From a virus: a stretch of DNA of 64,000 bases. Below are positions 32,708-48,397 of the stretch, piece after piece. Where the stretch lies: the IMG/VR virus record IMGVR_UViG_3300020392_000005; one strand, written 5' to 3'. Under the pieces are notes generated by a model. The model was not told the origin of the DNA and ran no database searches. It saw only the letters and a list, made by a program, of their open reading frames with translations. Positions within the stretch are counted from its first letter, which is position 1; every line of letters starts with the position of its first letter. The position numbers and the translations under genes are program-made.

Positions 32708-33769
32708 TTATTTACCTTTTTTGTTTTTGTCAATAAAGTTCTGGTAGACTTTACTTGCTTGACCTAAATCCTTTTTCTTTTCAGGATCCTTTGCTCTTTG
32801 ACTTGCTACTTTTGCTCTTTGTCCCATTGCAATTGCAGCCTGTATCTTATGAGCGTGTGTCTTGCCAGAATTTTTAATTTTGTTTACAGATTGAGTTGCT
32901 TTTTGTTTATCTGTAAAACCTAAACCGTGAATTGTACCTTTAGGATTTTCATCTGTATACAAATCACTATGTTTATCTGACCCAGCTTTCTGACCTTTCT
33001 TTCTAGGTATTCTAGCGTCTGCTTCTCTCGCTACTACTTTTAGATTGTGGTCTTTCTTACTTTGGTCAATGCCGTGTCTAGCATCCTTTTGCGACATTAG
33101 TCCTACACTTCGCATAGTTCTATGTCTTCCTTTAGGTGGTGTATCTCCTAGACTGGCGATTGGGTGCATTGCACCATAACTGCCACCACCTAAACCAATA
33201 CTGCCTAATGGTCCAACACCACCAGCACCGTATTCTTTTAATTTTGCTTTTTCTAAAATCGTTTTCTTTCTAGGTTCTTCAACAAACTCAATTTCTGTTT
33301 TACCATAAGTTTTATTATCAACAATAACATCTAGTCTATCTAACTGGTCTAGTATAGACTTCATCATTGTAGAGTTTGTTTCTTTATTTTCTTTGACGGT
33401 TGTACTAAACTTTTTCATTATAAGTTGTCGTAAAGCTTTCTCAGCTTCATTTTCGTCTTTGTACTTTTTATGTGATTTAGATAATGGGTGCATTCCGTTA
33501 GGGTTCATATCTACACCGCCGTGTGCGACAGCATTTGCTGGGGCGTCTTCTTTGACTACCTTCCAACCCATTTGTAAATAAGTTCTTAATTCAGCATCCC
33601 AAACAAGTCTTTCTTTTCCGTTCTTTGAAATCTTAACTTTCTTTTCAGTTATGTTTTCTTCAGGTACGCAATTAGGCACTTGTTTATTGCCTTTCTTTTT
33701 CATACCTACTTGTTTGTAACCTGTCCAGCAGGCTTCCCATACATCTTTAAATGTTTTAATATCTCGCAT
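32708..33769 (-). CDS. Modular putative internal head protein
   Basis: CTS-like N-terminus KTFKDVWE; CW.GYK.VG...VPNCVP and HSDLYTDENP modules separated by xxE sites. Confidence 0.65.
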   Translation of the reverse strand: MRDIKTFKDVWEACWTGYKQVGMKKKGNKQVPNCVPEENITEKKVKISKNGKERLVWDAELRTYLQMGWKVVKEDAPANAVAHGGVDMNPNGMHPLSKSHKKYKDENEAEKALRQLIMKKFSTTVKENKETNSTMMKSILDQLDRLDVIVDNKTYGKTEIEFVEEPRKKTILEKAKLKEYGAGGVGPLGSIGLGGGSYGAMHPIASLGDTPPKGRHRTMRSVGLMSQKDARHGIDQSKKDHNLKVVAREADARIPRKKGQKAGSDKHSDLYTDENPKGTIHGLGFTDKQKATQSVNKIKNSGKTHAHKIQAAIAMGQRAKVASQRAKDPEKKKDLGQASKVYQNFIDKNKKGK

Positions 33770-34343
33770 TTAAATAATCTCCAGGTATTAATACCTCTCT
33801 ATTATCTGTCTCTAAAGTATATATGTCCATACCGAACGCTGTATTTGTTGGTTTTACTTCGTTCTCTACATCAAAAGGTGTGCCTGCAGGTAAAAACTCT
33901 TCACCATCAAATACACTTTCTTTTAATTGATACAGACCAGGTACTAAAGTTCTATTCTCAAAATACTCTTCGTTTAGTTCCTGTGTATACTTAAACTCGT
34001 CAACAGATTTTAAATACTTAACACAGGTACTCTCTAAATTGTTACCGTGTTCAGTATAGTAATCTTTATCTTCTTTTACTAATAGAGTTAAAGCAGTTGC
34101 AAAACTACCTATACGACCACCTAATCCTACTTTACTTAATATTCTTTTCAGATTGAATACAAATCTATGTAGCATTGTGTAGGCGTTCTTTTCTTTTGTA
34201 GTTTTCAAAGATAAAAATTTCTTTAATACTTTACCTTTCTCATCAATAATACCTAATTTAAAAGCAGGTTGCTTGTTAAAAGGTGTTACCAACATCTTCA
34301 CTACTCTATACGCTATCAATAAATCAATTGCTCTTGTTGCCAT
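33756..34343 (-). CDS. Conserved T4-like hypothetical protein
   Basis: KLGIID..G, AYT..HR.VFNLKR motif. Confidence 0.75.
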   Translation of the reverse strand: MATRAIDLLIAYRVVKMLVTPFNKQPAFKLGIIDEKGKVLKKFLSLKTTKEKNAYTMLHRFVFNLKRILSKVGLGGRIGSFATALTLLVKEDKDYYTEHGNNLESTCVKYLKSVDEFKYTQELNEEYFENRTLVPGLYQLKESVFDGEEFLPAGTPFDVENEVKPTNTAFGMDIYTLETDNREVLIPGDYLNARY

Positions 34344-34705
34344 TATAGTTTCTCTAACTCTCTTTTTATTAACTCGTCTTCCGTTAAAGCGATTAACTCT
34401 TTCGGATACAAGTAATCCAAATATGTAAAAACAGACTTTAATATCGGCCAGTATTTTGTGTCATTTTTATATAACAACAATGTAATACAAGCGTCTATAC
34501 CAAATACATTTTGCAACACTACAATATGATTTACAACAAGTCTAATCTTTATAGAACCAGTTGTTTCATATTTTCTGAATAACCTTTTGAGATATTTAAA
34601 TCTCTTTATATCATCCCAAAATTCTTTTTCAGTTTCAAATGTCGGATTGTCGTAATGCTTTTGTGCATACAACAACCAATTATCTTTGGTTATCTGTTTG
34701 AACAT
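34343..34705 (-). CDS. Conserved T4-like hypothetical protein
   Basis: HYDNP...EF..D.KRFKY.KRL, NH...L.NVFG motif. Confidence 0.8.
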   Translation of the reverse strand: MFKQITKDNWLLYAQKHYDNPTFETEKEFWDDIKRFKYLKRLFRKYETTGSIKIRLVVNHIVVLQNVFGIDACITLLLYKNDTKYWPILKSVFTYLDYLYPKELIALTEDELIKRELEKL

Positions 34706-34710
34706 CTAAT

Positions 34711-35166
34711 TTACACTAATTTAGCGTAAACCTTTGATGAACCGTTAGACAATGTTTCAAACTTAACCTCTAATTTCAAGTTATCAATTCCAGGACCATT
34801 ATCTACTACCACATCTTCAGGTTTAGTTTCAGTTGTTTTACCATATGTACCACCGAATTGTTTTACTTCAGCAGTAACCGTACCAGCGTCACCTTCTAAT
34901 TTAACAGGACTAATATCTAATCCTATTCTCATTAGATTTTCTCTTAATTTGTCAACTGCGTATTGTGGTTTAATGTATTCCATATCGGCTACACTACCTA
35001 CAAAAGCATTAACTCTTTTAAGAACGCTTGGGTCTTTCAAATTTGCTGTTCCTAATGAACCATCTTCAACTGCATTACTTGTAGAAGTACCAGTTGTAGC
35101 GGCACCATATTTGATAGCATTTGATTTCACATTGCCTTCTTTTAAATGTTCTTTAAAAGTTTTCAT
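34711..35166 (-). CDS. Putative virion internal protein
   Basis: N-terminus MKTFKEHLKE, close to the T4 IP capsid-targeting sequence. Confidence 0.7.
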   Translation of the reverse strand: MKTFKEHLKEGNVKSNAIKYGAATTGTSTSNAVEDGSLGTANLKDPSVLKRVNAFVGSVADMEYIKPQYAVDKLRENLMRIGLDISPVKLEGDAGTVTAEVKQFGGTYGKTTETKPEDVVVDNGPGIDNLKLEVKFETLSNGSSKVYAKLV

Positions 35167-35175
35167 TTTTTTCTC

Positions 35176-35385
35176 CTACTTATATTTGTCCGACTTTACT
35201 TTAGAACCATCTGCTCTAGGTATCATACCTTTTGCTTTTAGATGAGCCTTATCTGTAAAGCCTGCCTTACCTGCTTTGTATCGCTTCATAGCGTCAGCAG
35301 TATTAGGCGCTTTCTCATTTACTAAATCTTCTTCAAAGTCTTTCAACTCTTCGTCTTCGTTAAACTTTGTGAACGACTTAACCAT
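35176..35385 (-). CDS. Small putative internal protein
   Basis: MVKSFTKFNE; AHLKAKG.IPRADG module. Confidence 0.65.
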   Translation of the reverse strand: MVKSFTKFNEDEELKDFEEDLVNEKAPNTADAMKRYKAGKAGFTDKAHLKAKGMIPRADGSKVKSDKYK

Positions 35386-35614
35386 CTTTTTTATCTTCTT
35401 TTTTAAGTTGTTGTTCAGCGCTTCTCAATGTCAAATCGCTTTCTTCTTTTCTCATCAACTTTTCAAGTATCTGTACTGCACCGTGAACGGCGTTTAAACT
35501 TGCTCTGGACTTTGCTAAGTCTTCTTCAAGTCTTTGTACGGATTCTTGTAGTTTTGTTCTTTCGCCAAGAAGTTGATTATATTCTTTCTCAACGACACCT
35601 ATACTTAAACTCAT
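35378..35614 (-). CDS. Small coiled-coil protein
   Basis: ORF track; AGGAG RBS. Confidence 0.7.
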   Translation of the reverse strand: MSLSIGVVEKEYNQLLGERTKLQESVQRLEEDLAKSRASLNAVHGAVQILEKLMRKEESDLTLRSAEQQLKKEDKKDG

Positions 35615-35634
35615 TATGTTCTCCTAATTATAAA

Positions 35635-36084
35635 TTACGCAACTACAAAACCGTGTCCGCCTATTACATTCCATTTAGAATTTTTAAATAAACATACAAC
35701 GGTTTCACCTTCAGCATTAAGAGTGATAGTTGAACCACCTCTTAAATTTGTTGGTGTTATTGTTATCGCATTAGAAGCTGTTCCTGTTGCGATAATTACT
35801 TTTTGTTGTCCATCAGCACCATCTTGTAATGATAATGCAGCTACACCAGCACTTTGGTCAACTTCAGTTATTGCTGAAGATGTATCAATTGCTGTATCTG
35901 TATGTGTTAACGCTTCAGACGCTTGTTTCAAACCTACGAAAGTAGGAATGTTTTCAAAAACATCTTTTGCGGTAACTCTTTTATTGATTGGTGTATTTTG
36001 GACATCATCAACAATATGAAATAAATCTCCACTTGCTAATGATTTACCTAGGTCGTCTAGGGCTGTGATTTTTTTATCTGCCAT
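35635..36084 (-). CDS. Putative virion structural protein
   Basis: MADKKITAL N-terminus typical of fibre/decoration proteins; late promoter upstream. Confidence 0.7.
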   Translation of the reverse strand: MADKKITALDDLGKSLASGDLFHIVDDVQNTPINKRVTAKDVFENIPTFVGLKQASEALTHTDTAIDTSSAITEVDQSAGVAALSLQDGADGQQKVIIATGTASNAITITPTNLRGGSTITLNAEGETVVCLFKNSKWNVIGGHGFVVA

Positions 36085-36150
36085 TTTATTCTCCTATAAT
36101 TCCGAGTTAACGGTAAACTACTCATTGCATTATACAATGACCATATACAC

Positions 36151-36158
36151 TATTTATA
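36151..36158 (-). promoter_or_regulatory. T4-type late promoter
   Basis: TATAAATA. Confidence 0.85.
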
Positions 36159-36163
36159 CAAAC

Positions 36164-36189
36164 AAAAAGGGGACCACAAAGGATCCCCT
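36164..36189 (-). terminator. Rho-independent terminator
   Basis: AGGGGA..CC / GG.CCCC stem plus T run on the minus strand. Confidence 0.7.
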
Positions 36190-36215
36190 AATTATTATAT
36201 TTGAATTTTTACTTA

Positions 36216-36710
36216 TTAAGCGTCTGCAAATTCTGTATCGTCACCTTGGTCACCTGCGATAGATGACATAGCAACTAGTACTTCTGTCTGCACTCTTCCA
36301 CTTCTTCCACCAGAACCGGCTACTCTTCGTACCCAACCAGCGTGTGCTGTTTTTGTAGTACCAACACCTTGTTCAGTAGTGTCAACACCGAATACTTTTG
36401 TCGGGTCTCCTTGAGTACCAGATGAATTGGCACTTTCAGAAGTTGTTACCGATTTAGGTTTTTCGGATAAAGTGTATGCTGTAGCACTTCCTACTGCTGT
36501 TAATGTTGCACCAGGTACACCAGCAACAACCGTTGCTGAAGTATCACTAGCAATAGCAGTAATTAAGTAATCTTCGCTTGCAACTCTAATATAGTCTCCA
36601 ACAGCTGCTTGTGTTGTTAAAGCAGTTGAAGAACCAGTAACCGCACCAGCAGAGCTGATTGCTACCGTTCCTGAAGCTGTTTTAGAGTCCTTGTTTCCCC
36701 ACGCACTCAT
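36216..36710 (-). CDS. Putative virion structural protein (Ala/Thr/Gly-rich)
   Basis: MS.WG..D...HAGWV...GRSGRV..E.LVA motif; own late promoter and terminator. Confidence 0.75.
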   Translation of the reverse strand: MSAWGNKDSKTASGTVAISSAGAVTGSSTALTTQAAVGDYIRVASEDYLITAIASDTSATVVAGVPGATLTAVGSATAYTLSEKPKSVTTSESANSSGTQGDPTKVFGVDTTEQGVGTTKTAHAGWVRRVAGSGGRSGRVQTEVLVAMSSIAGDQGDDTEFADA

Positions 36711-36770
36711 AGTTGTTCTCCTATTTCTAAATTAATTTTTAAGCTTAAAGATTAATCTAATCTTCGTTAT

Positions 36771-36778
36771 TATTTATA
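36771..36778 (-). promoter_or_regulatory. T4-type late promoter
   Basis: TATAAATA. Confidence 0.85.
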
Positions 36779-36779
36779 A

Positions 36780-37364
36780 CTATTTGAAACCTAGTTTTTT
36801 GAGTTGGGATATAGTGTTGGAAGTAGAGGTGTGTAGTATTCCGATACCGCCTCTTGCTTTGAATTGTGATATGTTCTTTGAATAGTCGTCAATCAGTATA
36901 GTAGGCATACCTCCTACTTTAGCAAAGTTTTGTTTCTCTCTTCTTTTTACTAGATTAACTTTTGCACCAGACATACCTAATCTTGTTCTAGCCCATTTAC
37001 TTTTGCCAGGTATACAATTAGGGTCAGTAGTTTGTTCTACGAAAGCAGATAATATGTGTGGGTCATACTTATTAATAAATGACCATAGTCTTTGACCACC
37101 TGGATTCCAAGGTAGATTACTCCAGAAGTTAGGAGTATTCATAATTGGTTTCCACTTATCTCTTATTGTCTTAAATTTTGTTCTAGGTTCTTTTGCCCAT
37201 TGGGACATAGGCATACCAACTGCTCTTTCTGCAGCCTGTTCAAAATTACACAGGACTCCGTCCATATCACAATAAATTCTAGGTAGTTTTTTGTCAACGA
37301 GAGAATACTCGTTTAGGTTTTTTACCTGATAGATAACATCTTGTCTTAATTCTTTAAACTTCAT
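36780..37364 (-). CDS. HAD-superfamily phosphatase (5'(3')-nucleotidase-like)
   Basis: IYCDMDGVL, ILS, GK..W, LIDD motifs; start moved to MKFKEL. Confidence 0.88.
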   Translation of the reverse strand: MKFKELRQDVIYQVKNLNEYSLVDKKLPRIYCDMDGVLCNFEQAAERAVGMPMSQWAKEPRTKFKTIRDKWKPIMNTPNFWSNLPWNPGGQRLWSFINKYDPHILSAFVEQTTDPNCIPGKSKWARTRLGMSGAKVNLVKRREKQNFAKVGGMPTILIDDYSKNISQFKARGGIGILHTSTSNTISQLKKLGFK

Positions 37365-37390
37365 AGTGTTTCCTTGTCTCATTATGCTTT

Positions 37391-37432
37391 ATTATTACAC
37401 ATTTTCTAGCAAAAGTCAAGCAAAAAATGAGC
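37391..37432 (-). promoter_or_regulatory. Sigma70-type promoter with GCTC upstream box
   Basis: GCTCATTTTTTGCTTGACT...TAATAAT. Confidence 0.7.
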
Positions 37433-37438
37433 AATTTT

Positions 37439-37744
37439 TTACACTTGATAGTCTATTTTAGGGTTTACTTCTACCTTATCTGACTTTGTTTTGTTATCTG
37501 TTAATTTCTTTTCAGGTGCCTTTGATTTAATGTCTAAAGGGTCTTTCTCTACTGCATTTTTAGGTAGAACCGTATCACCAGAATGGTCTTCTTTCTTTGC
37601 TCTTAATTTTGCAAGGTCAGAACCATCTATTTTACCGTTCTTGTTAACATCTAATTTCTTTTGTTTAGGTGTTAACTTTTCATTTACTTTAGAGATTGCG
37701 TCTTCTAACGAACCTGGTTTAATATCTAAATATCTTTTTCCCAT
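37439..37744 (-). CDS. Small putative internal protein with EF-hand-like loop
   Basis: KQKKLDVNKNGKIDG.D..KLR module. Confidence 0.7.
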   Translation of the reverse strand: MGKRYLDIKPGSLEDAISKVNEKLTPKQKKLDVNKNGKIDGSDLAKLRAKKEDHSGDTVLPKNAVEKDPLDIKSKAPEKKLTDNKTKSDKVEVNPKIDYQV

Positions 37745-39903
37745 TATTTACTTCCTCTAACTTTCTTTGCTAAATCTTTATCTGCACCGCCCCAAGTACC
37801 ACTTGATTTGGTTACAAAAGAGTTTACTCTAGCAAGTGCCCATTGTTGTTGTGTAGCACCTGGTCTATGACCACCTTTCCACGCAGCCATTCCTCTATCA
37901 TAAACTTTCTTTAAAATAGAATACGGCATACCTGTCTTATCAGCTTTGTTTCTTACTGCTTTAATACTTTCATAAGTCATTTTAGCAGGATGATTTTTGT
38001 TTTCTACTTTCATTTTTTTCTTTACCATATTAGTTGCGGTACCGTATCTTACATCATCGCCTTTTTCTTTACCATATCTATCTCTAAATGATTTCTTTGG
38101 TAAGTCATCAGCAACTTTGTGTACCATTTTTATTTGTTTTTTAGATAGGTCAGCTTCAGTTTTAAGTGCCTTCTCTAAATCTTTTGCTTGTTTAGTATGT
38201 GCCTTAACTGCACCTTTCAATTGTTTGATAACATCTTTTACAGCAGGTTTATCTTTACTATCTAAATCTTCTTTCTTCATTTCTTTGTCTCTTAATAATT
38301 TGTTTGCGAGACCTATTGATAATGGTACCTCACCTGTATCTGGATTAGGTTCAGGTTTTACAGCTTTATTCTTTTCTATTTCTAATTTCTGTTTAAGTAA
38401 TGCGACTTGGTCTTTTAGAGCAGCGATACTCTCTTTAGATTTATCTTCTTTCTCTTTAGACTTATCTTCGTCTTTACCTTTTAACATATCTTTTAATTTC
38501 ATTTTTTCCTCTGGTTCTTGTTCTTGTTCAAACATACTACCAAATATTCTAGCGTATGGGTCTCTTGCATATAAGTGACCGCCGTGTGTATCAAATCTAG
38601 TTTTTAACTTATTCATAAAGTCTTTGTTGGTTACATTACCTCTTGCACCTTTGGCAGGAGCATTAACACCAGCAGGTTTAAATAAGTCACCTGTATTCTT
38701 ATCTATGAAAGCGTGTATACTTCTCTTCTGTCCGTTTTCTGTATCGTGTATCTTAATGTATTTAGGACCTACCGTTTTCATTAAATCTCTTTTTTGTTTT
38801 GCATAAAGACCTTTGAAACTAGGATGATTTTTAATCTTGTCTTGTCCTATCTTAATGTAATCATCAACGCCTTTCATTACGGCAGCGTTTTCTGCTACAT
38901 ATTCTTCTTTCTGCATAACTCTTACATCATCGCCAAACTTTGCGACAACTTGTTTGTGTATGTTCTCTATATCTTTTGCACTATCAACTCTTACTTCTGA
39001 ACCAGAAGCTGATAGTTCACCACCACCAATCTTACCTTTAAACATATTGGCAACTTGTTTTGCTTGTGATGAGTTCTTACACATATATTCAATGTATTCT
39101 GCATATTCTTTTAATTCGTTTTCTTCTCTAATTCTTACATAAAATCTATTGTTAAATGGTGATTGATAACCGTCTGCTTTAGCACCTTTGTTTGATTGCA
39201 TATAAGCACTAGCGGCATTTCTTGCCATTGTCATATTAGGATAAACCTTATCTAAAACTTTTGTACCATTTCTTAATTTCATAGTCTCTTCTTTAGTAGG
39301 TTTCATACCTTGTTTTTTTAATCTGTCTATGTCTGCTTCTGACGGAGCGTTCTCATTAGTTTCTGTATTATTATCTTTATAGTCGTCTGTCTTTTTCTTT
39401 TGAATACCTTTAGCGCCGTGGTCACTAGTATGTGTTTCTGTAATCTCTTCCCAAGATTTATTTTCAAAAGCAGATAACTTAACTCCTTTAGGTACTTGAA
39501 TACCTTTCTGTATCATACGACTAGCAGCCATCGCTGAAAGAAAAGGAATGTCTGCTTTGTAAAGTTTAGGTAGTTGTGAATTTGTAATTTTGTCAAAGAT
39601 GTTTCTTAATTGATTAGCTCTTGCAAGTGAAATTCTTGCACCTTTAAGTCCTGAATATTCTTTTTTAAGTTTCTGTATTTGTGCGTCTGTAAACTCCCAC
39701 AACATACTTTCAGGTAAGTCTTCCTCACCTAGTATTGACTTAACCGTAGACAACGGAAGTTTCATCTTCTTTGCTATCTCTTCAGGTGATGAACCACCTG
39801 CGAACATAGTGGCAATTGTTTTCATCTTACCTTCGTCTAGCTGTATATCGTTTGCCCAGACTTCAGCGATTGCTTCTGCCATTGTCTTTTTGTATCTTGT
39901 CAT
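37744..39903 (-). CDS. Large modular putative internal head (poly)protein
   Basis: Lys-rich modules separated by (L/I/V)xE sites; C-terminal VY.RGMAAW..GHRPGA..QQWA.ARVNSF domain. Confidence 0.7.
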   Translation of the reverse strand: MTRYKKTMAEAIAEVWANDIQLDEGKMKTIATMFAGGSSPEEIAKKMKLPLSTVKSILGEEDLPESMLWEFTDAQIQKLKKEYSGLKGARISLARANQLRNIFDKITNSQLPKLYKADIPFLSAMAASRMIQKGIQVPKGVKLSAFENKSWEEITETHTSDHGAKGIQKKKTDDYKDNNTETNENAPSEADIDRLKKQGMKPTKEETMKLRNGTKVLDKVYPNMTMARNAASAYMQSNKGAKADGYQSPFNNRFYVRIREENELKEYAEYIEYMCKNSSQAKQVANMFKGKIGGGELSASGSEVRVDSAKDIENIHKQVVAKFGDDVRVMQKEEYVAENAAVMKGVDDYIKIGQDKIKNHPSFKGLYAKQKRDLMKTVGPKYIKIHDTENGQKRSIHAFIDKNTGDLFKPAGVNAPAKGARGNVTNKDFMNKLKTRFDTHGGHLYARDPYARIFGSMFEQEQEPEEKMKLKDMLKGKDEDKSKEKEDKSKESIAALKDQVALLKQKLEIEKNKAVKPEPNPDTGEVPLSIGLANKLLRDKEMKKEDLDSKDKPAVKDVIKQLKGAVKAHTKQAKDLEKALKTEADLSKKQIKMVHKVADDLPKKSFRDRYGKEKGDDVRYGTATNMVKKKMKVENKNHPAKMTYESIKAVRNKADKTGMPYSILKKVYDRGMAAWKGGHRPGATQQQWALARVNSFVTKSSGTWGGADKDLAKKVRGSK

Positions 39904-40199
39904 TTTTTTTCCTCGTATTCTTTAATGTCTATTATTAATCTACCTTCACCTTTGTGTAATCTATGATACACCATTTTAGGTATATAATACTCACTACCTA
40001 CTTTTAACTCTTCAGGCAACTGATTATCCATTTGAAGTTTCCAATTAACACCAGAGACAATCTTAATCTTTCTATCTAACTTGTCTCTATGCCAAATTAG
40101 TTCTTTGTCTTCAATGTCATTATTGAAAACTCTCTGGTGTATACCATTTGTTTTAAAATCAGTATACGGTTTACCAAAAGAAGTTTCCACCATTGCCAA
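39900..40199 (-). CDS. Cupin-like small protein
   Basis: EL.WHRD..DR, W..Q.DN.LP, HRL.KG motif. Confidence 0.7.
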   Translation of the reverse strand: MAMVETSFGKPYTDFKTNGIHQRVFNNDIEDKELIWHRDKLDRKIKIVSGVNWKLQMDNQLPEELKVGSEYYIPKMVYHRLHKGEGRLIIDIKEYEEKK

Positions 40200-40707
40200 G
40201 TCCTAAACTCTTTGCATATCTAGGCAAATTACAAGCCCAATATGACGCCTTTGTTTTATCCTTTTGACTAGCACATCTATGTCTAGCTGCAAAGGACTTT
40301 CTAGCTTTGGGGTCGTTTAGTTTCACTTTCAATCCTGTTGTATCTCCCCAAGTCACCTTCTTAATCTTATCGCCGTCTTTGACGAATACATAAAACTTTT
40401 TAGGTCCACCTCTTTTAGGTTTGTTCAAAGGAGGATTCTTTTCCTCTTCTGCAATCGGTATATCTAAAGGCACATTTTGCTCTTCGTATATACCAAACTC
40501 ACCTATATCAGTTGATAGTAATTCTCTATCCCAAGCACTATCTACTTCTAATAGACCTTCATTATACATATCTCTTGCCTCTCTAAACAAGGCATAAAAT
40601 TCTTCACTATGAATACGATAGATGTTATTCGCTAGAGGTATGTTATTCTCTATGTGATAATGCAACGACTTCGTTATCTTTTCTGCGTAATCACTAAATC
40701 TTAACAT
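40171..40707 (-). CDS. Putative internal protein with basic C-terminal domain
   Basis: MLRFSDYAE; LNKPKRGG.KKFYV.V, ARKSFAARH.C, YWAC. Confidence 0.7.
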   Translation of the reverse strand: MLRFSDYAEKITKSLHYHIENNIPLANNIYRIHSEEFYALFREARDMYNEGLLEVDSAWDRELLSTDIGEFGIYEEQNVPLDIPIAEEEKNPPLNKPKRGGPKKFYVFVKDGDKIKKVTWGDTTGLKVKLNDPKARKSFAARHRCASQKDKTKASYWACNLPRYAKSLGLGNGGNFFW

Positions 40708-43636
40708 ACTCTTTAAACGATTGCACTTTCAACCGTTCCTCCATCTTTTTCACAGCTTCGTCAATCTCTTTTTGATACTCTTCGCCGTATCGTTTCTTAT
40801 ATTTATCAATAGTCTCACTTGAAGCAGCCCACTCTTTTATATCTTCTGTGGTAATCTTCTCTGGTGCTTGTTCAGCACGCTTTTTAGTGTCTACTGATTT
40901 CTCATTTGGCGTCTGTCCAGGCGTGATTTCTTTAGTATGATTGGCATAATCAGCACCTATTTCGTATGCTTCTTTGCCGTACATCTGGTTAAATTTCTTT
41001 GTGTGTTTAGATGTTTTAGTCTTTGCACCTTTATCACCTGGGGCAGCTTTGTAATCACTATCTTTGTCTGATTTACTATACTTCTGTTTAGAGAAATGAC
41101 TTGCTCTCTTTTCTTTTTCACCTTTTTTCAAATCTTTATAGTATTTTTTAGGTTGTGTTCCGTCTTTCTTTTTGACATCTTTATCTTGTGGTAACTTCTT
41201 ACCATATGCTTCTTTTAGTTTCATATCTATTTCTTTCTCGGACATAGCTTCAAAACCATAATCTACATTTAAATCGTGTTCGTGTATTCTAACTTCATCT
41301 ACTTGTGGTGTAGGAATACAATCCCATATCCAACATTTGTGTAAGTTAGAATTGTTATCTTCTAATACAATGTAATTTGTTCCTCTTCTTACTACTTTAC
41401 CAGAAACATCTTGTTTTTGGTCTTCAACTATATCGTCTTGTTTAAATAATTGTTCTCTTATGTAAAGGTCTCTTACCTGCCATTGAGTAAAGTTTTCAAT
41501 AGAAGATATAGGTTTCATAGTACCTAATCCGTGAGATTGCATATTCGCTTGTAAGTTCATACCTTTTCTAACTAGACCAAACAACTTCTGTTTGTCTCTA
41601 AATGAAGTAGGTAATCCTCTTTGAAAAGATTTAAAATCATCTTTTGCGGCTGCGTCTCTCATCTTACTTGCACTCATACCTGTTGCACCTTCAGCGTCTG
41701 GGTCTCTTTCGCCAGCACTTACAACATTAATTTTATCGTACTCGTAATCAGTACCTCTTGCCTTTACGCCGTTATATCTGTTTAGTAGTGTTTCAAATTC
41801 TCTTACTCTATCTGAACCAACTACCATTGTTATTTCGTTTGCTTTACCATTTAGTTTATTGATAACTTCAATCGCTGTTCTAGCGCCAGGTATTTGTTTT
41901 ATCTTACTAGCATATCTAGGAAACATTGATTTCATAATTCTAATTTTGTCATCAACTTTTAATGGATTCTTTTTACTATCAAAAGAACCACTAGGTACTA
42001 TAATAAAATCATTTGCACCTACACTCGCAACTTTATTAATAAGTTTTTCGTGTCCTATTGTTGGTGGATTAAATCTACCAAAGGTAAATGCAATATGTTT
42101 TTTAGGTGTACCTGTTGCTTCTTTTAAACTATCTATTTCTCTATCTGTTATATTACCATCATCTAAAATATCTTTACACTTCTTATAGAATTTTAAGTAA
42201 TGGTATTTCTCTAACATTTTATAGATAACATTTTTAGGAAGTTTGTGTTTCTTACCAAACTCTCTAATTTCTTCTGGCGACATATCACTTTGAAATGCAG
42301 CTTGTCTGTCTTGTATAACTTGGTCGCCTGTATCAATGATAGATTGTATACTATCTTCAATCTCATCTAATTTATTTCTTATCATAGATTGTAGATTGTC
42401 AACATCATCATTTGATAATCCTCTTAATTCTTTGTAATCAATTATATCTCTTACTAGTTCGCCTTTGACAACATCTAACTCCATAACTTTCTTACCGAAG
42501 TCGTCCATATATTTGTCTTTGTCAAACTCTTCTTTCTCTGGTCTTCTGACAAACTTATTATTCTCTACATCAAATACGCCATCTGCCATACTATCATTTT
42601 TCTCTTTGACAGCAGGGTCTACTATTACAAAATAATTGATTGGGTGTTTAGTACCTGGTACTAGTTTACCATTTACATCTTTTAAGTTCTTTCTTAATGC
42701 CTCTAACGCAGCTTCTCTTTCTTCTTCTTTGACATCAAACAATATATTAATATCTAAATCTGCGTCTTCTCTATATCTCTTTGTTAAGATAGAACCGATT
42801 AATGAATACTTTTTGATTGGGTGATATTGTGCAAATTGTTTTAGTTGTGCGTCTATCATATCTTTCACAACTTTTTTTAATTTAGGATTGTTTGTTTCTG
42901 CGTCATCAAATACGCCAGGTGCATATCTCTTTCTAGGAATATCTATAATACTTTCCTGAATATTAACCATATTGATTAATTTTTTAGCAATCTTAACACT
43001 TTCCTCGTGGTCAGAAGGATAATGCCAACCTGCAATAACTCTTCCATAACCACACTCGTCAGCAAGTTCAATAAGATTATCTTTATGTTTAGGATATAAT
43101 TTACCATAGTATTCTGCAAGTAATCTACTTTGCAAACTATGACCTGATGGATACGCAGGAGTTTTCATAGTATCAGAAATTAATTCCATACTATCAAACT
43201 TTAAATTCATTGCGTCTGCAAGTTCATATGGTCTAGGTCTTTGAAATTTATTCTTGTAATATCTAACAACACCACTACCTGCTTTTTTAATCTCGCTTAT
43301 ATCACTATCTTTGTATTCTAAATTGTTTTCATCTAGGTATTTTTTTATACCATAAAAAGTTTCTTGGTCGTGGTTCTCTACACTTTTTTCTATATCACTA
43401 TTTCTACTCTTAAATAGTTCTATCATAGTGTTCATTTCATCTTTAGTTTCAGGACTATCGTTCTCTGGTGGCGTCTCTACATCAATATCTTTCCAGTTAC
43501 CATCTATATTCTGTACAGGTTTAGGTTCTACTTTAGGGTGTGTCAAATCATTTAGGTCTTCGTCAACCATCTTCTTTCTTTTAAGAAGTTCTTTCACATA
43601 GTTTCTATAATATGCGTTTTGAAAATTATCTGGCAT
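40694..43636 (-). CDS. Multidomain protein: PAP2 phosphatase + Pol-beta-type nucleotidyltransferase + HIGH-type (cytidylyl/adenylyl)transferase + basic tail
   Basis: K..F.RPRP / YPSGH / R...G.HYPSD; IGS...DADLD; FGRFNPPTIGH, VVGSDR, SAG.RDPD, MSASKMR. Confidence 0.88.
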   Translation of the reverse strand: MPDNFQNAYYRNYVKELLKRKKMVDEDLNDLTHPKVEPKPVQNIDGNWKDIDVETPPENDSPETKDEMNTMIELFKSRNSDIEKSVENHDQETFYGIKKYLDENNLEYKDSDISEIKKAGSGVVRYYKNKFQRPRPYELADAMNLKFDSMELISDTMKTPAYPSGHSLQSRLLAEYYGKLYPKHKDNLIELADECGYGRVIAGWHYPSDHEESVKIAKKLINMVNIQESIIDIPRKRYAPGVFDDAETNNPKLKKVVKDMIDAQLKQFAQYHPIKKYSLIGSILTKRYREDADLDINILFDVKEEEREAALEALRKNLKDVNGKLVPGTKHPINYFVIVDPAVKEKNDSMADGVFDVENNKFVRRPEKEEFDKDKYMDDFGKKVMELDVVKGELVRDIIDYKELRGLSNDDVDNLQSMIRNKLDEIEDSIQSIIDTGDQVIQDRQAAFQSDMSPEEIREFGKKHKLPKNVIYKMLEKYHYLKFYKKCKDILDDGNITDREIDSLKEATGTPKKHIAFTFGRFNPPTIGHEKLINKVASVGANDFIIVPSGSFDSKKNPLKVDDKIRIMKSMFPRYASKIKQIPGARTAIEVINKLNGKANEITMVVGSDRVREFETLLNRYNGVKARGTDYEYDKINVVSAGERDPDAEGATGMSASKMRDAAAKDDFKSFQRGLPTSFRDKQKLFGLVRKGMNLQANMQSHGLGTMKPISSIENFTQWQVRDLYIREQLFKQDDIVEDQKQDVSGKVVRRGTNYIVLEDNNSNLHKCWIWDCIPTPQVDEVRIHEHDLNVDYGFEAMSEKEIDMKLKEAYGKKLPQDKDVKKKDGTQPKKYYKDLKKGEKEKRASHFSKQKYSKSDKDSDYKAAPGDKGAKTKTSKHTKKFNQMYGKEAYEIGADYANHTKEITPGQTPNEKSVDTKKRAEQAPEKITTEDIKEWAASSETIDKYKKRYGEEYQKEIDEAVKKMEERLKVQSFKEYVKI

Positions 43637-44303
43637 TGCTTCTCTTTAATTGTAGTTCTTTTTCTATCCACTTTTTCGCTACATAATTTTGTACAGGAAC
43701 ACTAATTAATCTCCTTACTTGTTTAAATACTTTTAATAGTTCATCTTCTTTTGCGTCATTGTTATCAACGACTATCATATTTCTCATACCAAACATATTT
43801 TGAAATCTACCGATATTATTTTGTACGGTTTGCCAACTCTTTCTAGTAATATCTTCTGGCACGCTTCTAGTTCTAATTCTATTTCTTTGTAATGCAACTT
43901 CTAAACTAGTGTTTACAAATATCATATAAGTGTCATAACCTAACATCTGTAGCATACTTCTTTGTTTATTAATTACATTATAATCTCTACCTGTTGCGTC
44001 TATAACTAAACCTAGTCTACCTCTAATGTATCTGTCCATCTGGTCGCCTGTAATCTGTTTTGCTCTTTGTCTCAATGGGTCTCTAGCACTTGCTTCATTA
44101 TCAGGCATTTTCAATGATAGACCTGCTTTCTTTAGATACATTTCAAATCTTGTATCAGAATTAACCATCTTTAAACCTAATCCTAAAGTTGTTCTATTGG
44201 TTACATAAGTCTTACCAGAACCAGGACCACCTGCAAGAAAAAATGCTTTGAATATTCCTGGGTCGTAAACACCTTCTTGTATTATAGATTTAAATTGTTT
44301 CAT
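43626..44303 (-). CDS. P-loop kinase (Zeta toxin/PNK-like)
   Basis: GGPGSGKT, VID.T, AL.RN..R.R.VP. Confidence 0.85.
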   Translation of the reverse strand: MKQFKSIIQEGVYDPGIFKAFFLAGGPGSGKTYVTNRTTLGLGLKMVNSDTRFEMYLKKAGLSLKMPDNEASARDPLRQRAKQITGDQMDRYIRGRLGLVIDATGRDYNVINKQRSMLQMLGYDTYMIFVNTSLEVALQRNRIRTRSVPEDITRKSWQTVQNNIGRFQNMFGMRNMIVVDNNDAKEDELLKVFKQVRRLISVPVQNYVAKKWIEKELQLKRSNAR

Positions 44304-44590
44304 ACTTTATATAGAGTATACTTTAAAGTTATCTCTTCTCCTTTTTTAATATCTTTTAATGTTTGCACATAAAACTTACCATCAACTTCTATCTTCTGTA
44401 CATTTGGTTTATCACTATGATTTATGAAACCACCTAGTGGCGTTCTATATAATTCTCTTCCATAGTTCAACCAACCTATACCCAAGTCTGTCCACTTGTC
44501 AATCTTCTTTGTTGCGAAAACTCCGTAACCTTCTATGGGCGATAACTTTAGTGTCAAATTATCAGGCAAAGGTCTATACTTATCTGTCAT
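44300..44590 (-). CDS. Minimal SET-domain protein (lysine methyltransferase fold)
   Basis: GYGVFA, FINHS..PN, DI..GEEIT..Y. Confidence 0.9.
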   Translation of the reverse strand: MTDKYRPLPDNLTLKLSPIEGYGVFATKKIDKWTDLGIGWLNYGRELYRTPLGGFINHSDKPNVQKIEVDGKFYVQTLKDIKKGEEITLKYTLYKV

Positions 44591-44894
44591 CTCCGCTACC
44601 GTGTATCTTGTCCTCTTCTAATCGTTTCTGTAATTTAAATATATTAGATTGTGCTACATCATCTAATCGTATATCTAAATCGTTTGCTAATGCACTAACA
44701 TACCATAGTACATCACCTAATTCTTTTTTAATATCTTCTTTTGAGAAAGTGTTACCGTCTCTCATATTCTTTTTAATTTTATCTGCAACTTCGCCAACTT
44801 CTGAACAAAGTCCTATCATAGGATAAGTTATCTTATCTTTTGCAGGATAAACTGCTGATGATATACTTAATGCTTGATAATCATTAAAGTTCAT
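44580..44894 (-). CDS. mazG: MazG-like nucleotide pyrophosphohydrolase
   Basis: GL.SEVGEV..K.KK, ELGDVLWY, N..KL..R. Confidence 0.92.
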   Translation of the reverse strand: MNFNDYQALSISSAVYPAKDKITYPMIGLCSEVGEVADKIKKNMRDGNTFSKEDIKKELGDVLWYVSALANDLDIRLDDVAQSNIFKLQKRLEEDKIHGSGDDR

Positions 44895-45468
44895 TTTGTA
44901 TCTCCTTTATAATATCTTTCGCAATATCACCAGGCTCTTTTCCTTGTGCCTTAATACTAACAAAGCCTGGTTGTCTTTTGAAGTAATCAATCGCTGGACC
45001 TGTTTCTTTTTTATACAAGGCAATTCTATCAGATATAATATCTGGTTTATCATCGGCTCTTCCTCTCTTTGTCAATCTTCTAATTACTTCTTCTTTATCC
45101 ACATCTAAAAATACAACAACATCATAACCTATGCCAAACTTTTCCATATCTCTAACTTGTTGCATATATCTAGGATAACCATCTAGTACATAACCTTTTG
45201 TTGCACTTGCAACTTCTTTTCTAATAAGTTTTAAAACTATATCGTTAGGTGCAAACTTACCTTGGTCTAATAAATTCTTAATCTTCTGACCATCAGGACC
45301 ACCTTTGTCAATTTCTTTTCTCAATAAACCACCTGGGTATATGTGTTTGATACCAAAGTGTCTAATGATGTATTCAGAATAGGTTGACTTACCTGAACCA
45401 GGACCACCCATAATGACTACACGAACCATCTTGGCTTCTTTTAAAAAATTAACAAATGTCTGTACCAT
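44884..45468 (-). CDS. adk: Adenylate kinase (short type)
   Basis: GGPGSGKST, G.LLR, LDGYPR...Q, R.R.DD. Confidence 0.92.
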   Translation of the reverse strand: MVQTFVNFLKEAKMVRVVIMGGPGSGKSTYSEYIIRHFGIKHIYPGGLLRKEIDKGGPDGQKIKNLLDQGKFAPNDIVLKLIRKEVASATKGYVLDGYPRYMQQVRDMEKFGIGYDVVVFLDVDKEEVIRRLTKRGRADDKPDIISDRIALYKKETGPAIDYFKRQPGFVSIKAQGKEPGDIAKDIIKEIQNEL

Positions 45469-45502
45469 TCTTTCTCCTGTTTCTGTTTCTAAAAAAATCT
45501 TT

Positions 45503-45634
45503 CTATCCTATTAAATACATTATTAAAATACCGATTGCTAATCCTTCTAACCACGCCAGATATACTGACTTCAAAGGATGCTCGTGTATGAAATTAAACT
45601 TCCAGTCTAATATTTCTTTTATAAATTTTTTCAT
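45503..45634 (-). CDS. Small membrane protein (43 aa)
   Basis: Manual ORF MKKFIKEILDW...AWLEGLAIGILIMYLIG. Confidence 0.6.
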   Translation of the reverse strand: MKKFIKEILDWKFNFIHEHPLKSVYLAWLEGLAIGILIMYLIG

Positions 45635-46851
45635 TATCCTTTTACCCAATCTTTTGCGATAGTAAAGTTTGCTCTACTAAACTCTAATCTATCTACTAGT
45701 TTGACTACATTACCTATCTTATCTGTAGCAACAAATCCTTCAGGTGCGGTAACTCTATAACCACTATCAGTTCTAATAAAGTGACCAACACTTTGTATCT
45801 GTGCTAACTTCTGCAATATTGTATTCTTCGCTGTTTGCAAAGTCATATATGTTGCGATAGAAAAATATAGTGCTTGTTTGTTTCTATCAATAAATTTTAA
45901 ATTGTTATCTTTTGCATTTATATATTTCTCTTTACCTCTAGCAGTTTTCTTACTATCTATTTCTGCTTGTATAAAGTTCTCATAGTAATCTCTAAATCTA
46001 TCTTGTAATGTTCTAACACTACCCATACCACCTTTACTATCTCTAATGACAGAATTGAAAAATGTCTTTAGTCTGAAACCAACTGACAACTGGTCATTAC
46101 TATCAAATAGATTTAACAAAGGTCCTGCCTTCTGTAAACTACCTTCTGCCATTCTTAATTGTGCATTAAACTTAGCAACTTCTGCTCTACTCATTGTTGC
46201 ACTACCACTAGTATCTTTGTATTGTGCCGATGGTACGAATACACTAGCAGAATTGATACCTCTTACATAACCGAAACTTGCATTTAAACTATCCATTGCA
46301 TTACCATTATATTGAGTATGAAATACAATACCTAGTCTTGCTCTTGCAACTTTTCTACCAGCGCTACTATCAACTGGTAAAGCATATGTAATTGTGTTAG
46401 GTGTAAAAGAAATCATAGATTGACCATCTATGTTTACTACTTTCTTTTCTTCACTAGTAAATAATAAATCGCCTTGTAAGATACCTCTTATACCTAACTT
46501 TTTTAATTCTCTTAAACAGACTTGAAGTTTAGACGCAACAGGACCACTATGGTTTCTGTTTATGTCTGAAACGGTATAATTGATTTTGGGAGTTCTATTG
46601 AATACAGATTTTGTTCCAACAAAGAATTTGTTGTTTTCAGGATTGATACCACAAACTATGGCAGGTGCACCGTCCCATTTAACGGTTACATTTACTTTCT
46701 TGCTTGAGTTACCTACAAGCATTTTTTGTAAAGACTTTAAAAATGCAATCGCATTTCTACCACCTTTAGCGCCGTCATTTATAATACTATCTTCTAAATG
46801 CTCTAGGTGTGTGTTCGTACCTGAGCTTGAATATCCTTTAAAACTAAACAT
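45634..46851 (-). CDS. Conserved large-phage protein (DUF6267-like) with ATP-dependent ligase/capping-type motifs
   Basis: N.HLEHLED; KWDG (motif I), LQGD (III), EGFV (IV), VKLV (V). Confidence 0.7.
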   Translation of the reverse strand: MFSFKGYSSSGTNTHLEHLEDSIINDGAKGGRNAIAFLKSLQKMLVGNSSKKVNVTVKWDGAPAIVCGINPENNKFFVGTKSVFNRTPKINYTVSDINRNHSGPVASKLQVCLRELKKLGIRGILQGDLLFTSEEKKVVNIDGQSMISFTPNTITYALPVDSSAGRKVARARLGIVFHTQYNGNAMDSLNASFGYVRGINSASVFVPSAQYKDTSGSATMSRAEVAKFNAQLRMAEGSLQKAGPLLNLFDSNDQLSVGFRLKTFFNSVIRDSKGGMGSVRTLQDRFRDYYENFIQAEIDSKKTARGKEKYINAKDNNLKFIDRNKQALYFSIATYMTLQTAKNTILQKLAQIQSVGHFIRTDSGYRVTAPEGFVATDKIGNVVKLVDRLEFSRANFTIAKDWVKG

Positions 46852-46918
46852 TTTTGTCCTTCATTTTTTCCATATACAAATAAACTATCCATCAATATAA
46901 TACTCACTTCGTCTCTTA

Positions 46919-46926
46919 TATTTATA
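46919..46926 (-). promoter_or_regulatory. T4-type late promoter heading the enzyme/internal-protein block
   Basis: TATAAATA inside an imperfect palindrome GTCTTATAAATATAAGAGAC. Confidence 0.85.
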
Positions 46927-46929
46927 AGA

Positions 46930-48348
46930 CTATGACACTTTTACAAAGAAACTAGATAAATCAGTATTACTAGCCGCATATCTGATAATATCAGTAGCGA
47001 TAGCGTTTCTTTGTGCTCCTGTGCCTGACATAAAAGTGTCTAAAAATTGTAGACACATATTCTTTGAGAAGATAAAACCACCTTTGAGTTCTAAACATTT
47101 TGCAATAAATGTCTTTACATCAACAGGATTCTTTGCATATTTTTTATATAAAACATACATATCGTTTAACTTCACTTGATTACTAGGTGTCTCTCGCCAA
47201 CCTTGACCTTTGAGACCACCACCTATACTTCTTCTCATATGTTTCTCACAATAGAAGTTTAGGTTACCACCACCAATCTTACCACCGGCAGCAGCCACAC
47301 CTTTTATTTCACCTTGCCAACTTGAAGTAGAATTAAATGCTCTGAATTGTACCTCACCTGTACCTATCTTAAAGTACATATCAACACTTGAAAAGAAATC
47401 ATTGTTTCTTCCAAAAGTAAAACCTTTAAAGGTATGTGTTATTTCTTTTGTTCTAGTAGGTTCGTTAAACTCTTTTAGAGAAACCGTATTGCCTAGTTTC
47501 TTTAATGAGATTCCTAAAAGAAATGTTTTAGGACTTCCTATACGACCTGCTTTATCTAATACTGCCTGATTAATTACAGACCAATCTTTTGTAAATTCTT
47601 TTAATGGGTCACTTGCAGGTGACATTGTTGTCATCCATATATCACCTGGATTCCATTTATCATCTGAAAACGAACCTGGTGCCTGTGGCATTTTACCATC
47701 TTTTTGTGCTTGTGCTTTATCCATTCTTGCAACTTCTTTTTTAGCACGATATACTTTACTCATAAAATTACTACCTCTATGAAAGTATACTGCACCTTGC
47801 ACTTTGTTTTTATATTTTCTGTATACTGCGTTTGCACTCTTAATAAATGTATCAGATTGTAACCAATCTTCAGGACATCTATCTTTAAATGCTTTGTATG
47901 CTACGGTTGCCTGTACATACTTTGCGGCCTTCTCCATATTCTTATCTGTAATATCAGAAGAAGTTATAGGTCCTCTCTTAACATTAAAGGCAAGTGAACA
48001 ATAATAACATTGACCACTCTCGGTTACTGCGGTTACAGCCGCACCACCACCAGAACCACCACCTCCTCCGAAGAGTGGCGATTTATATATCTTCGTAATA
48101 GGAACAACTTCTGTTTTGTTTCCTGTATCTGATTTACAAACGATTGAGAAAGGATAGGTATTAGGTTTACCTTCTATTGATATACCTGTAAGTTTACGAC
48201 CTGAAGAAGTCTTACCTTCTACAAATCGTTCTTTATTCTTAATCATAAGTTCGCATATGGCAAATCTAGTCTTGCCTGCGTACTTACCATTCTTTGAGAC
48301 ATATGCTTTGCCGTCTCTAATGAAATCGTTTTTTCCTAATGTTGCCAT
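46930..48348 (-). CDS. Putative restriction-endonuclease-fold protein
   Basis: T..TES, DKWNPGDIW...GISLKK (PD-(D/E)XK variant). Confidence 0.6.
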   Translation of the reverse strand: MATLGKNDFIRDGKAYVSKNGKYAGKTRFAICELMIKNKERFVEGKTSSGRKLTGISIEGKPNTYPFSIVCKSDTGNKTEVVPITKIYKSPLFGGGGGSGGGAAVTAVTESGQCYYCSLAFNVKRGPITSSDITDKNMEKAAKYVQATVAYKAFKDRCPEDWLQSDTFIKSANAVYRKYKNKVQGAVYFHRGSNFMSKVYRAKKEVARMDKAQAQKDGKMPQAPGSFSDDKWNPGDIWMTTMSPASDPLKEFTKDWSVINQAVLDKAGRIGSPKTFLLGISLKKLGNTVSLKEFNEPTRTKEITHTFKGFTFGRNNDFFSSVDMYFKIGTGEVQFRAFNSTSSWQGEIKGVAAAGGKIGGGNLNFYCEKHMRRSIGGGLKGQGWRETPSNQVKLNDMYVLYKKYAKNPVDVKTFIAKCLELKGGFIFSKNMCLQFLDTFMSGTGAQRNAIATDIIRYAASNTDLSSFFVKVS

Positions 48349-48365: not shown

Positions 48366-48397
48366 AGTATACTAGACAATATTTATTCTTATGTCAA
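48366..48397 (-). promoter_or_regulatory. Sigma70-type promoter
   Basis: GTGCTTGACA-N17-TAGTAT. Confidence 0.65.

Follow-up and report, generated by a model that had tools for sequence, protein, structure and literature searches.

T4-type capsid-targeting leaders probably mark a virion-cargo module in the genome of a pelagimyophage

The viral DNA analyzed here (IMG/VR record IMGVR_UViG_3300020392_000005, a stretch of 64,000 nucleotides, hereafter called the window) carries a block of genes at positions 32,708 to 46,926 in which several unrelated enzymes and small proteins begin with a similar short leader. These leaders resemble the capsid-targeting sequence borne by internal proteins (IP) of phage T4, and they probably mark the tagged enzymes as head cargo, encoded in a presumably late-transcribed virion-cargo module. 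The strong set of predicted cargo consists of a 151-amino-acid (aa) protein, a zeta-toxin-like kinase, an adenylate kinase (Adk), a modular 719-aa protein and, outside the block, a RimK-like ligase. A NT5C-type nucleotidase, a 69-aa protein and the ligase-like DUF6267 protein probably belong to it as well. The same idea had been put forward for the block from the letters of the DNA alone (the sequence-only reading). Comparative evidence and the virion proteomes of two cyanophages support it in a corrected form: only a subset of the genes is tagged, two of the proposed examples are probably not tags, and one tag lies outside the block. The window derives from a pelagimyophage, a T4-like phage of SAR11 (Kyanoviridae); its DNA polymerase shares 67% identity with the enzyme of Pelagibacter phage Mosig and about 52% with the enzymes of T4-like cyanophages.

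In the T4 record, IPII and IPIII start with MKTYQEFIAE and IPI with MKTFKEF...ITE. This capsid-targeting sequence of IPI-III was described by Mullaney and Black in 1996 (reviewed in PMC9026906 and PMC3012670); targeting depends on residues 4 and 7, and processing on residues 8 and 10 (PMC9026906). As read from the window and its relatives, the leader is composed of a basic or polar residue, an aromatic residue near position 4, a hydrophobic one near position 7, and then [LIV]-x-Glu. The 151-aa protein, the kinase, Adk, the 719-aa protein, the RimK-like protein and DUF6267 each have an aromatic or hydrophobic residue near positions 4 and 7. The leader endings are LKE, IQE, LKE, MAE and ITE, and the DUF6267 and 178-aa proteins of the window fail the [L/I]-x-Glu ending. 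The closest resemblance is seen in the 151-aa protein, a candidate internal protein, whose first six residues (MKTFKE) are identical to those of T4 IPI.

A pattern fixed in advance on the basis of T4 IPII/IPIII and of cyanophage proteins known from mass spectrometry (MS), ^M.{0,3}[KRQ].[FYL]..[FYILMVHW][ILVFM].E, matched 3 of the 113 N-termini of open reading frames (ORFs), namely those of the 151-aa protein, the kinase and Adk. Interior positions predict 0.10 matches (Poisson P = 1.8e-4), and shuffling of the N-termini predicts 0.097 (P = 2e-4). The three matches all fall among the 20 genes of the block (Fisher P = 0.005). For this core set, the enrichment goes beyond chance. In the T4 genome, used as a positive control, the pattern finds ipII, ipIII and gene 61.1, with about two other matches among 565 first starts; even this harsher null, taken from T4, predicts only about 0.4 matches in the window. 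A position-specific scoring matrix (PSSM) built solely from T4 and the MS-detected cyanophage proteins was applied to all six frames, with 1045 candidate starts in total. The five highest scores belong to the starts of the 151-aa protein (the best), Adk, the 495-aa RimK-like protein and the kinase, together with one internal Met. In Pelagibacter phage HTVC008M, a T4-only pattern hits three real gene starts, which belong to adjacent genes within the syntenic block.

T4 gene 61.1 (NC_000866, 18966-19130) is a hypothetical ORF of 54 aa directly upstream of the primase gene 61. It starts with MKTFKEFIKE, a leader of the full capsid-targeting type, and shares the 41-to-61 neighbourhood with the cargo block of the marine phages.

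In the orthologues of the kinase, Adk, the RimK-like and the 151-aa protein, positions 4, 7 and 8 and the Glu are kept, and the other positions and the length vary. For the kinase, leaders were examined in 33 IMG/VR loci and 120 database homologues. A leader of 8-14 aa is present in 106 of the 120; the other 14 are without the DPGIFKA anchor used to locate the leader end. Nearly all anchored leaders (104/106) end with [ILV]xE-G in front of the conserved YDPGIFKA, the exceptions being IIQV-G and IIQE-V. Variants include MKQFKQIIQE, MKTFKALIQE, MLRFSQFISE, MIPFILKE and MKKTLQEVRDYINE, and among 10 sequences down to 46% identity M1, E10 and G11 are invariant and F4 nearly so. The Adk orthologues carry leaders of 11-16 aa, for example MVQTFVNFLKE, MDTFKQYLFNFLNE and MKTFRNFYEAQILE, every one ending with LxE-AK before strand beta-1. 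In the orthologues of the 151-aa protein, MKTF[KR]EH[LI]KE is kept and the residues after it diverge; that of HTVC008M starts with MKSFKDFQNVNE and is 39% identical in the mature part. For this protein, the ESM Atlas look-up returned viral hypothetical clusters only. The leader of the 719-aa protein, missed by the sequence-only reading, is kept in 14 orthologues.

The RimK-like protein (Pfam RimK, E = 2.2e-35) had also been missed. It is located among the replication genes, between regA and the polymerase cluster, a position at which HTVC008M lacks a gene. In 75 N-termini read from 80 loci, its orthologues keep xFxx[FY][ILF]xE, and the linker behind this motif is variable. KFKDFI.E, as found in these leaders, also heads a nucleotidyltransferase (NTase) gene of one related locus (L046). 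Two replication proteins were considered as tagged and rejected: the looser motif of the sequence-only reading matches UvsX, and gp61 is tag-like in look, and in each case the N-terminus is the ordinary conserved one of the protein.

The identity of Adk is clear (Pfam ADK, PF00406, E = 2.6e-37, 128.7 bits against a cut-off of 26.8), with a P-loop and matches to Adk structures in the PDB down to E = 1.5e-29; a strong Shine-Dalgarno site precedes the long start. The proposal that the catalytic fold starts right after the Glu is roughly right: beta-1 lies about four residues past it in Adk, where residue 2 of the E. coli enzyme aligns with residue 16, and begins at residue 19 in the kinase. In the AlphaFold2 (AF2) models of the kinase and of DUF6267, the leader is the sole N-terminal segment of low confidence, with a predicted local distance difference test score (pLDDT) below 50 for residues 1-9 and 1-13, respectively; the DUF6267 model has a pLDDT of 90 overall.

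DUF6267 had been called ligase-like, and the label is reasonable because of the invariant KxDG, EG and K motifs and the ligase neighbours of the model. Motif I (KxDG, with the catalytic Lys), motif IV (EG) and motif V (K) correspond to K58, D60, G61, E371, G372 and K384, invariant in 68 sequences. With VIA-align, the best structural neighbours of the model are RNA and DNA ligase adenylyltransferase domains, at modest Z-scores (5.5-7.8), and 14 of the 15 best matches are RNA or DNA ligases (Z 5.7-7.8); Foldseek gave no match to the PDB at E <= 0.001, and sequence searches of DUF6267 and of the kinase against PDB chains gave none. The family was surveyed with 150 representatives below 50% identity, 104 of which have a Met start and a recognisable domain start. 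MxxFxxF[ILV]xE is found in strict register in 27 of these and in a relaxed form in another 15 (42 together). Other short extensions, many ending with LxE, are present in 23, whereas 17 have no leader and start directly at the domain (MAKNTHLEHLED). The remaining 22 are fusions, and their joints again read ...LTE/xKxNTH (here and below, a slash marks the predicted cleavage position).

Chance or composition could in principle account for the resemblance, MK- starts being common and Glu, Leu, Ile and Phe frequent in AT-rich phage genomes. Besides the match of the loose motif to UvsX, a strict T4-only pattern has several off-target matches in T4 itself, and two of the eight original examples fail. 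Against this stand the interior-position and shuffle controls, the retention of the motif in orthologues down to 45% identity and in 42 of the 104 diverse DUF6267 proteins, and its association with virion detection, which together make a chance origin hardly credible.

The same boundary is found inside larger proteins. A phosphatase and nucleotidyltransferases had been listed among the packaged enzymes; the PAP2 phosphatase and the two NTases are in fact domains of a 980-aa protein without an N-terminal tag, separated by internal [LIV]xE junctions that match the cleavage position in the tags of stand-alone homologues. A metagenomic homologue with the NTase and cytidylyltransferase domains (P0072) starts with MKTFKE/SIIDIPRK, and its residue 1 aligns to residue 223 of the 980-aa protein, within MVNIQE/SIIDIPRK. 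In L046 (10670 onward), the NTase part is a separate gene with its own leader, MISKFKDFIKE/SIIDIPRR, and in L024 (gene after 1656-2333) the PAP2 domain is missing and the sequence reads ...DVKE/SIID. One mature N-terminus, SIIDIPRK, thus stands behind MKTFKE, MISKFKDFIKE, NIQE or DVKE, depending on the genome, and [ILV]xE/SIID is invariant in 18 orthologues. Similarly, cytidylyltransferases of the cyanophage type (~323 aa) start with MKKFS[ED]FL[SK]E/A, which aligns with the internal DSLKE/AT at residues 502-508; in the homologue P0095, DFLKE/AS aligns to these residues. Homologues of the enzymes of the 980-aa protein have been detected by MS in cyanophage virions.

In the 719-aa protein, the internal junction [LIV]xE/[NG] is invariant in 14 orthologues despite a preceding linker of changing length. 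Stand-alone DUF7717 proteins of 125-140 aa carry T4-like leaders (MKTYKQ..., MATKFKQYVQNLYVAE/SS or MKSFEKYLNE/), and from their sequences they look like internal proteins in the T4 sense. The kinase and 980-aa genes are separate in the window and in most relatives, with an overlap of 11 nt. In three loci (L031:1111-4656, L033:10001-13546 and L037:6265-9810), the tagged kinase is fused in frame to a 980-aa-type protein, giving 1181 aa with the joint LGIRE/S. An assembly error as the origin of the split was rejected, as most relatives share the same overlapping stop and start. As judged from these gene structures, the multi-enzyme protein is modular between close relatives.

Two cyanophage proteomes connect the leader with virions. 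For S-CREM2 (OR473000), 52 of about 221 proteins are listed as virion proteins in the MS table (PMC10665884). A T4-only pattern finds four real gene starts in this genome (ORF6, ORF14, ORF136 and ORF154), and all four products are virion proteins (hypergeometric P ~0.003). ORF6, a S-adenosylmethionine hydrolase, starts with MKDFDSFLEE; ORF14, a kinase, with KRFDAFLTE behind a GTG; ORF154, a cytidylyltransferase, with MKNFSSFLTE; ORF136 with MQTFSMFFSE and ORF13 with MKDLHSFLTE. The 'regulatory' virion proteins, ORF6, ORF14 and ORF154 included, were left unexplained by the authors (PMC10665884). Virion proteins of S-SCSM1 include the nicotinamide mononucleotide adenylyltransferase (NMNAT, ORF91) and the whole syntenic stretch of ORFs 89-93, 95 and 97 (PMC9602691). 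ORF91 starts with MKSFLQFLKE/A, and the syntenic stretch holds homologues of the 472-aa protein, the cytidylyltransferase domain and the 164-aa protein of the window. Both papers suggest that enzymes may ride in the virion and give no loading mechanism (PMC10665884, PMC9602691); full-text literature searches, with subscription journals outside their reach, returned no paper linking capsid targeting to cyanophages. The S-CREM1 virion proteome (14 proteins) is too shallow and was not used. Members of the gp21 protease family (PF03420, Peptidase_S77) are encoded by HTVC008M, S-CREM2 and S-SCSM1 and on a 109-kb contig with this block.

Two further cyanophage proteins deserve mention. S-SCSM1 ORF30 (MK867354, 44215-44535), a hypothetical protein of 106 aa in the structural region, starts with MKTFKQFMSE and is not flagged as a virion protein; it is a candidate internal protein missed by MS. 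S-CREM2 ORF12 (OR473000, 7704-10313, annotated 'CRISPR-Cas9 nuclease') is a virion protein with LRFASFMAE at residues 17-25 and not at the annotated N-terminus, which points to either a mis-set start or a longer leader.

Several points weigh against head cargo. The DUF6267 protein of the window (MFSFKGY) keeps F4 and Y7 and has lost [IL]xE including the Glu, and the 980-aa protein has no N-terminal leader of its own in this genome. Adk is of the short AK1-like type, and the LKKTK before beta-1 of AK1 aligns with LKEAK of the phage enzyme; the extension is thus partly ancestral and only a few residues longer than in AK1. The head genes are outside the window, protease and scaffold being seen in relatives only. 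No virion proteome exists for any pelagimyophage, and Adk and the zeta-like kinase are not named among the virion proteins in the cyanophage proteome texts, the unnamed virion proteins having been left out of the comparison. No neo-N-terminus after the Glu has been reported, cyanophages included. Furthermore, the cyanophage authors concede that abundant enzymes might co-purify with virions (PMC10665884, PMC9602691), and RegA is also on the S-SCSM1 virion protein list (PMC9602691).

The last three points fit a second explanation, in which the leader is a real conserved N-terminal element with another job (a cytoplasmic complex like the T4 deoxynucleotide synthetase complex, membrane attachment or stability) and virion detection in the cyanophages reflects co-purification. 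However, contamination would not pick exactly the proteins with T4-like tags, as seen in S-CREM2, the motif equals the T4 tag at the mapped targeting and cleavage positions, and the Glu coincides with conserved polyprotein junctions, for which a protease site is a better fit than a docking helix. Another job is accordingly regarded as unlikely.

Within the block, the tag applies to a subset of the proteins, and the MazG, SET-domain, 164-aa and 149-aa proteins are untagged, like the 472-aa protein encoded immediately upstream, which is 27% identical over 387 aa to S-SCSM1 ORF90, an MS-detected virion protein. The minus strand carries every gene of the window. The order of transcription is DUF6267 (405 aa), adenylate kinase, MazG, the SET-domain protein, the AAA_33/zeta-toxin-like kinase and the 980-aa protein, then the 178-aa protein, the 719-aa protein (DUF7717, DUF5824), a 101-aa protein and the NT5C-type nucleotidase, and finally two structural-looking proteins (164 and 149 aa), small proteins of 78, 69 and 151 aa, DUF7207, and proteins of 195 and 353 aa. 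The block is located between a gp41-type helicase (48759-50138) and a gp61-type primase (26473-27477), the latter followed by nrdA and nrdB. It is syntenic with 104-117 kb of HTVC008M (family Kyanoviridae); a megablast search against the phage collection gave no match.

The untagged neighbours bear on a third explanation, namely that the proteins are virion-borne on the tail, baseplate or neck and the motif is not a head-targeting signal. ORF95 in the syntenic block of S-SCSM1 is annotated as a tail fiber and has a homologue in the window, and the neighbouring gene 32219-32701 is labelled tail assembly chaperone by PHROG. Yet the structural-looking members (164, 149 and 472 aa) are the untagged ones, and soluble enzymes bear the tag. 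In addition, the tag is the same as the head-targeting sequence of T4, and its conserved Glu agrees with what the head protease is known to cut. Such a location is quite improbable.

Late transcription of the presumed cargo genes is suggested by promoter motifs. The window contains 18 copies of ATAAATA, all on the coding strand and most of them just 5' of genes (for example at 3265, 13676, 36151, 36771, 40800, 46919, 48380 and 61938); shuffles predict 39. A functional T4-type late promoter element would be expected to behave in this way, and ATAAATA appears to be counter-selected outside promoters. The copy at the head of the block, TATAAATA, is found where it had been reported, 68 nt upstream of the first gene. 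No terminator-like site was found on the minus strand between 46851 and 36780. A strong intrinsic terminator (36168-36189, an 8-bp GC-rich stem plus a T run) directly 3' of the 164-aa gene precedes a new TATAAATA, an arrangement that suggests an abundant transcript with its own dosage. A scan of the window for sigma-70-type promoters did no better than shuffles (56 vs. 61.8), and no timing for the gene cluster of the block was found in a metatranscriptome paper. Outside the block, a DUF6433 protein (13131-13640) sits behind TATAAATA at 13676. Its internal Met at 13568 opens MALTFHEILTK, which scores high with the PSSM but ends with Lys, not Glu; the segment is conserved in HTVC008M.

All eight N-termini quoted in the sequence-only reading are present at minus-strand start codons, as it had stated. 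Three are strong tags (MKTFKEHLKE, MKQFKSIIQE and MVQTFVNFLKE), three are intermediate (MVKSFTKFNE, MKFKEL...NLNE and MFSFKGY), and two are doubtful (MRDIKTFKDVWE and MLRFSDYAE). MRDIKTFKDVWE, from the 353-aa protein, is doubtful because other PHROG families have FKDVWEACWTGYKQVG in their interior, as a conserved segment of a domain; what looks like a tag probably belongs to a conserved ACWxGYxQVG...PNCVP module. MLRFSDYAE, from the 178-aa protein, is doubtful because MLRFSDY is conserved in orthologues and the Glu is not; some kinase orthologues use MLRFSQFISE. For NT5C, the alignment to PHROG 2643 begins only at residue 31 of the long ORF, and in the orthologues the second Met (second ATG) is the true start; the HTVC008M orthologue starts with MKYSAFKAE. 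In its mature part, the 69-aa protein matches the C-terminus of a HTVC008M protein of 170 aa at 87% identity. The coordinates of all features are given in Table 1.

Table 1. Tagged, doubtful and untagged genes, predicted junctions and promoter of the block and its surroundings, in window coordinates.
Feature	Position	Strand	Leader or junction	Remarks
472-aa protein	46930-48348	-		Untagged; immediately upstream of the block as first delimited; ATAAATA at 48380-48386
T4-type late promoter motif	46919-46926	-	TATAAATA	
DUF6267 ligase-like nucleotidyltransferase, 405 aa	45634-46851	-	MFSFKGYSSSGTN (46813-46851)	Degenerate leader; Pfam E = 1.9e-122
Adenylate kinase, 194 aa	44884-45468	-	MVQTFVNFLKE/AK (45430-45468)	Strong
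MazG	44580-44894	-		No leader
SET-domain protein	44300-44590	-		No leader
AAA_33/zeta-toxin-like P-loop kinase, 225 aa	43626-44303	-	MKQFKSIIQE/G (44271-44303)	Strong; Pfam and PHROG matches
Multi-enzyme protein, 980 aa	40694-43636	-		PAP2 phosphatase, polymerase-beta NTase, cytidylyl/NMN-adenylyltransferase-like domain, DUF5824-like tail (Pfam, PHROG)
Candidate cleavage junctions of the 980-aa protein	42941-42967; 42107-42133; 41201-41224	-	NIQE/S; SLKE/A; KLKE/A	
178-aa protein	40171-40707	-	MLRFSDYAE	Doubtful leader; ATAAATA upstream at 40800-40806
Modular protein, 719 aa	37744-39903	-	MTRYKKTMAE/A (39871-39903)	DUF7717, DUF5824 (Pfam)
Internal junction of the 719-aa protein	38878-38904	-	YVAE/N	Residues 336-338
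NT5C/HAD 5'-nucleotidase	36780-37364	-	MKFKELRQDVIYQVKNLNE/Y	Possible 19-aa leader; intermediate
164-aa structural-type protein	36216-36710	-		Untagged; behind TATAAATA at 36771-36778; homologous to S-SCSM1 virion protein ORF95
149-aa structural-type protein	35635-36084	-		Untagged; behind TATAAATA at 36151-36158
69-aa basic protein	35176-35385	-	MVKSFTKFNE	Leader-like; intermediate
151-aa protein	34711-35166	-	MKTFKEHLKE/G (35134-35166)	Strong; candidate internal protein
353-aa basic protein	32708-33769	-	MRDIKTFKDVWE	Apparent tag; doubtful
RimK-type ATP-grasp ligase with RimB-like Zn_protease domain, 495 aa	56785-58272	-	MQVPKFKDFITE/K (58234-58272)	Outside the block

If the leaders act as in T4, each would dock its precursor onto the scaffolding core of the assembling prohead, by analogy with IPI-III, and a gp21-type prohead protease would cut behind the Glu. 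The same protease may cut the 980-aa and 719-aa proteins at their internal [LIV]xE junctions and release separate enzymes. The mature proteins would remain in the head and exit together with the DNA when the next cell is infected. For this phage, packaging, cleavage and injection are inferred, and the physiological role would likely be nucleotide, nicotinamide adenine dinucleotide (NAD) or RNA-repair chemistry before phage gene expression.

A broader proposal is put forward tentatively and is considered less likely than not: SAR11 myophages, and Kyanoviridae generally, may pre-load an enzymatic starter kit, partly as protease-cut polyproteins, whose injection would restore nucleotide, NAD or RNA integrity in a starved or self-sabotaging host before expression begins. 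The kit may include Adk, the zeta-like kinase, the NMNAT-like adenylyltransferase, the PAP2 phosphatase, the polymerase-beta NTase, the RNA-ligase-like DUF6267 and the RimK-like ligase. In that case, the injected proteome of the most abundant ocean myophages would be readable directly from genome sequence.

The narrower assignment of T4-type leaders to head cargo, if true, would explain the recurrence of metabolic enzymes when virions of marine T4-like phages are purified. It would also show the head-loading signal of T4 at work in a phage family that is distant and very abundant, and provide a simple sequence rule predicting which proteins enter the host with the DNA. In SAR11, whose growth is slow and limited by nutrients, the outcome at the very start of an infection could depend on nucleotide kinases, NAD-related transferases and a ligase-like enzyme brought in by injection. 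The grammar of leader and junction also suggests a natural modular means to address foreign proteins to these capsids.

In comparison with T4 IPI, IPII and IPIII, the window shares a leader of 10-19 aa with aromatics at positions 4 and 7 and an [L/I]-x-Glu end, placed on unrelated proteins. A gp21-family protease encoded by the phage group is also common to both, and late expression would be as well, judging from the promoter motifs of the window. The T4 internal proteins are small DNA-binding or anti-restriction proteins, whereas the predicted cargo of the window consists mostly of enzymes (Adk, the P-loop kinase, the RimK-like protein, DUF6267 and nucleotidyltransferases). Moreover, the window leaders, known from sequence alone, are looser in length and register, and some cargo would be made as multi-domain precursors with internal junctions. 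T4 likewise packages an enzyme, the ADP-ribosyltransferase Alt, into its head, where gp21 trims it, and injects it together with the DNA (PMC9026906); Alt has another leader and is processed at both ends, and the window has no Alt homologue. The NMNAT/cytidylyltransferases and kinases of S-CREM2 (PMC10665884) and S-SCSM1 (PMC9602691) share with the window a homologous cytidylyltransferase domain, the gp41-gp61 neighbourhood and the leader (MKNFSSFLTE, MKSFLQFLKE). The cyanophage cytidylyltransferase is a stand-alone protein, whereas the domain of the window is embedded in the 980-aa fusion behind the internal SLKE/A, and the host is SAR11. In the giant phages SPN3US and phiKZ, many head proteins, enzymes included, are reportedly cut by a T4-like prohead protease at sites ending with Glu. 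These phages represent another lineage, with other propeptides and a much larger inner body than the phage of the window.

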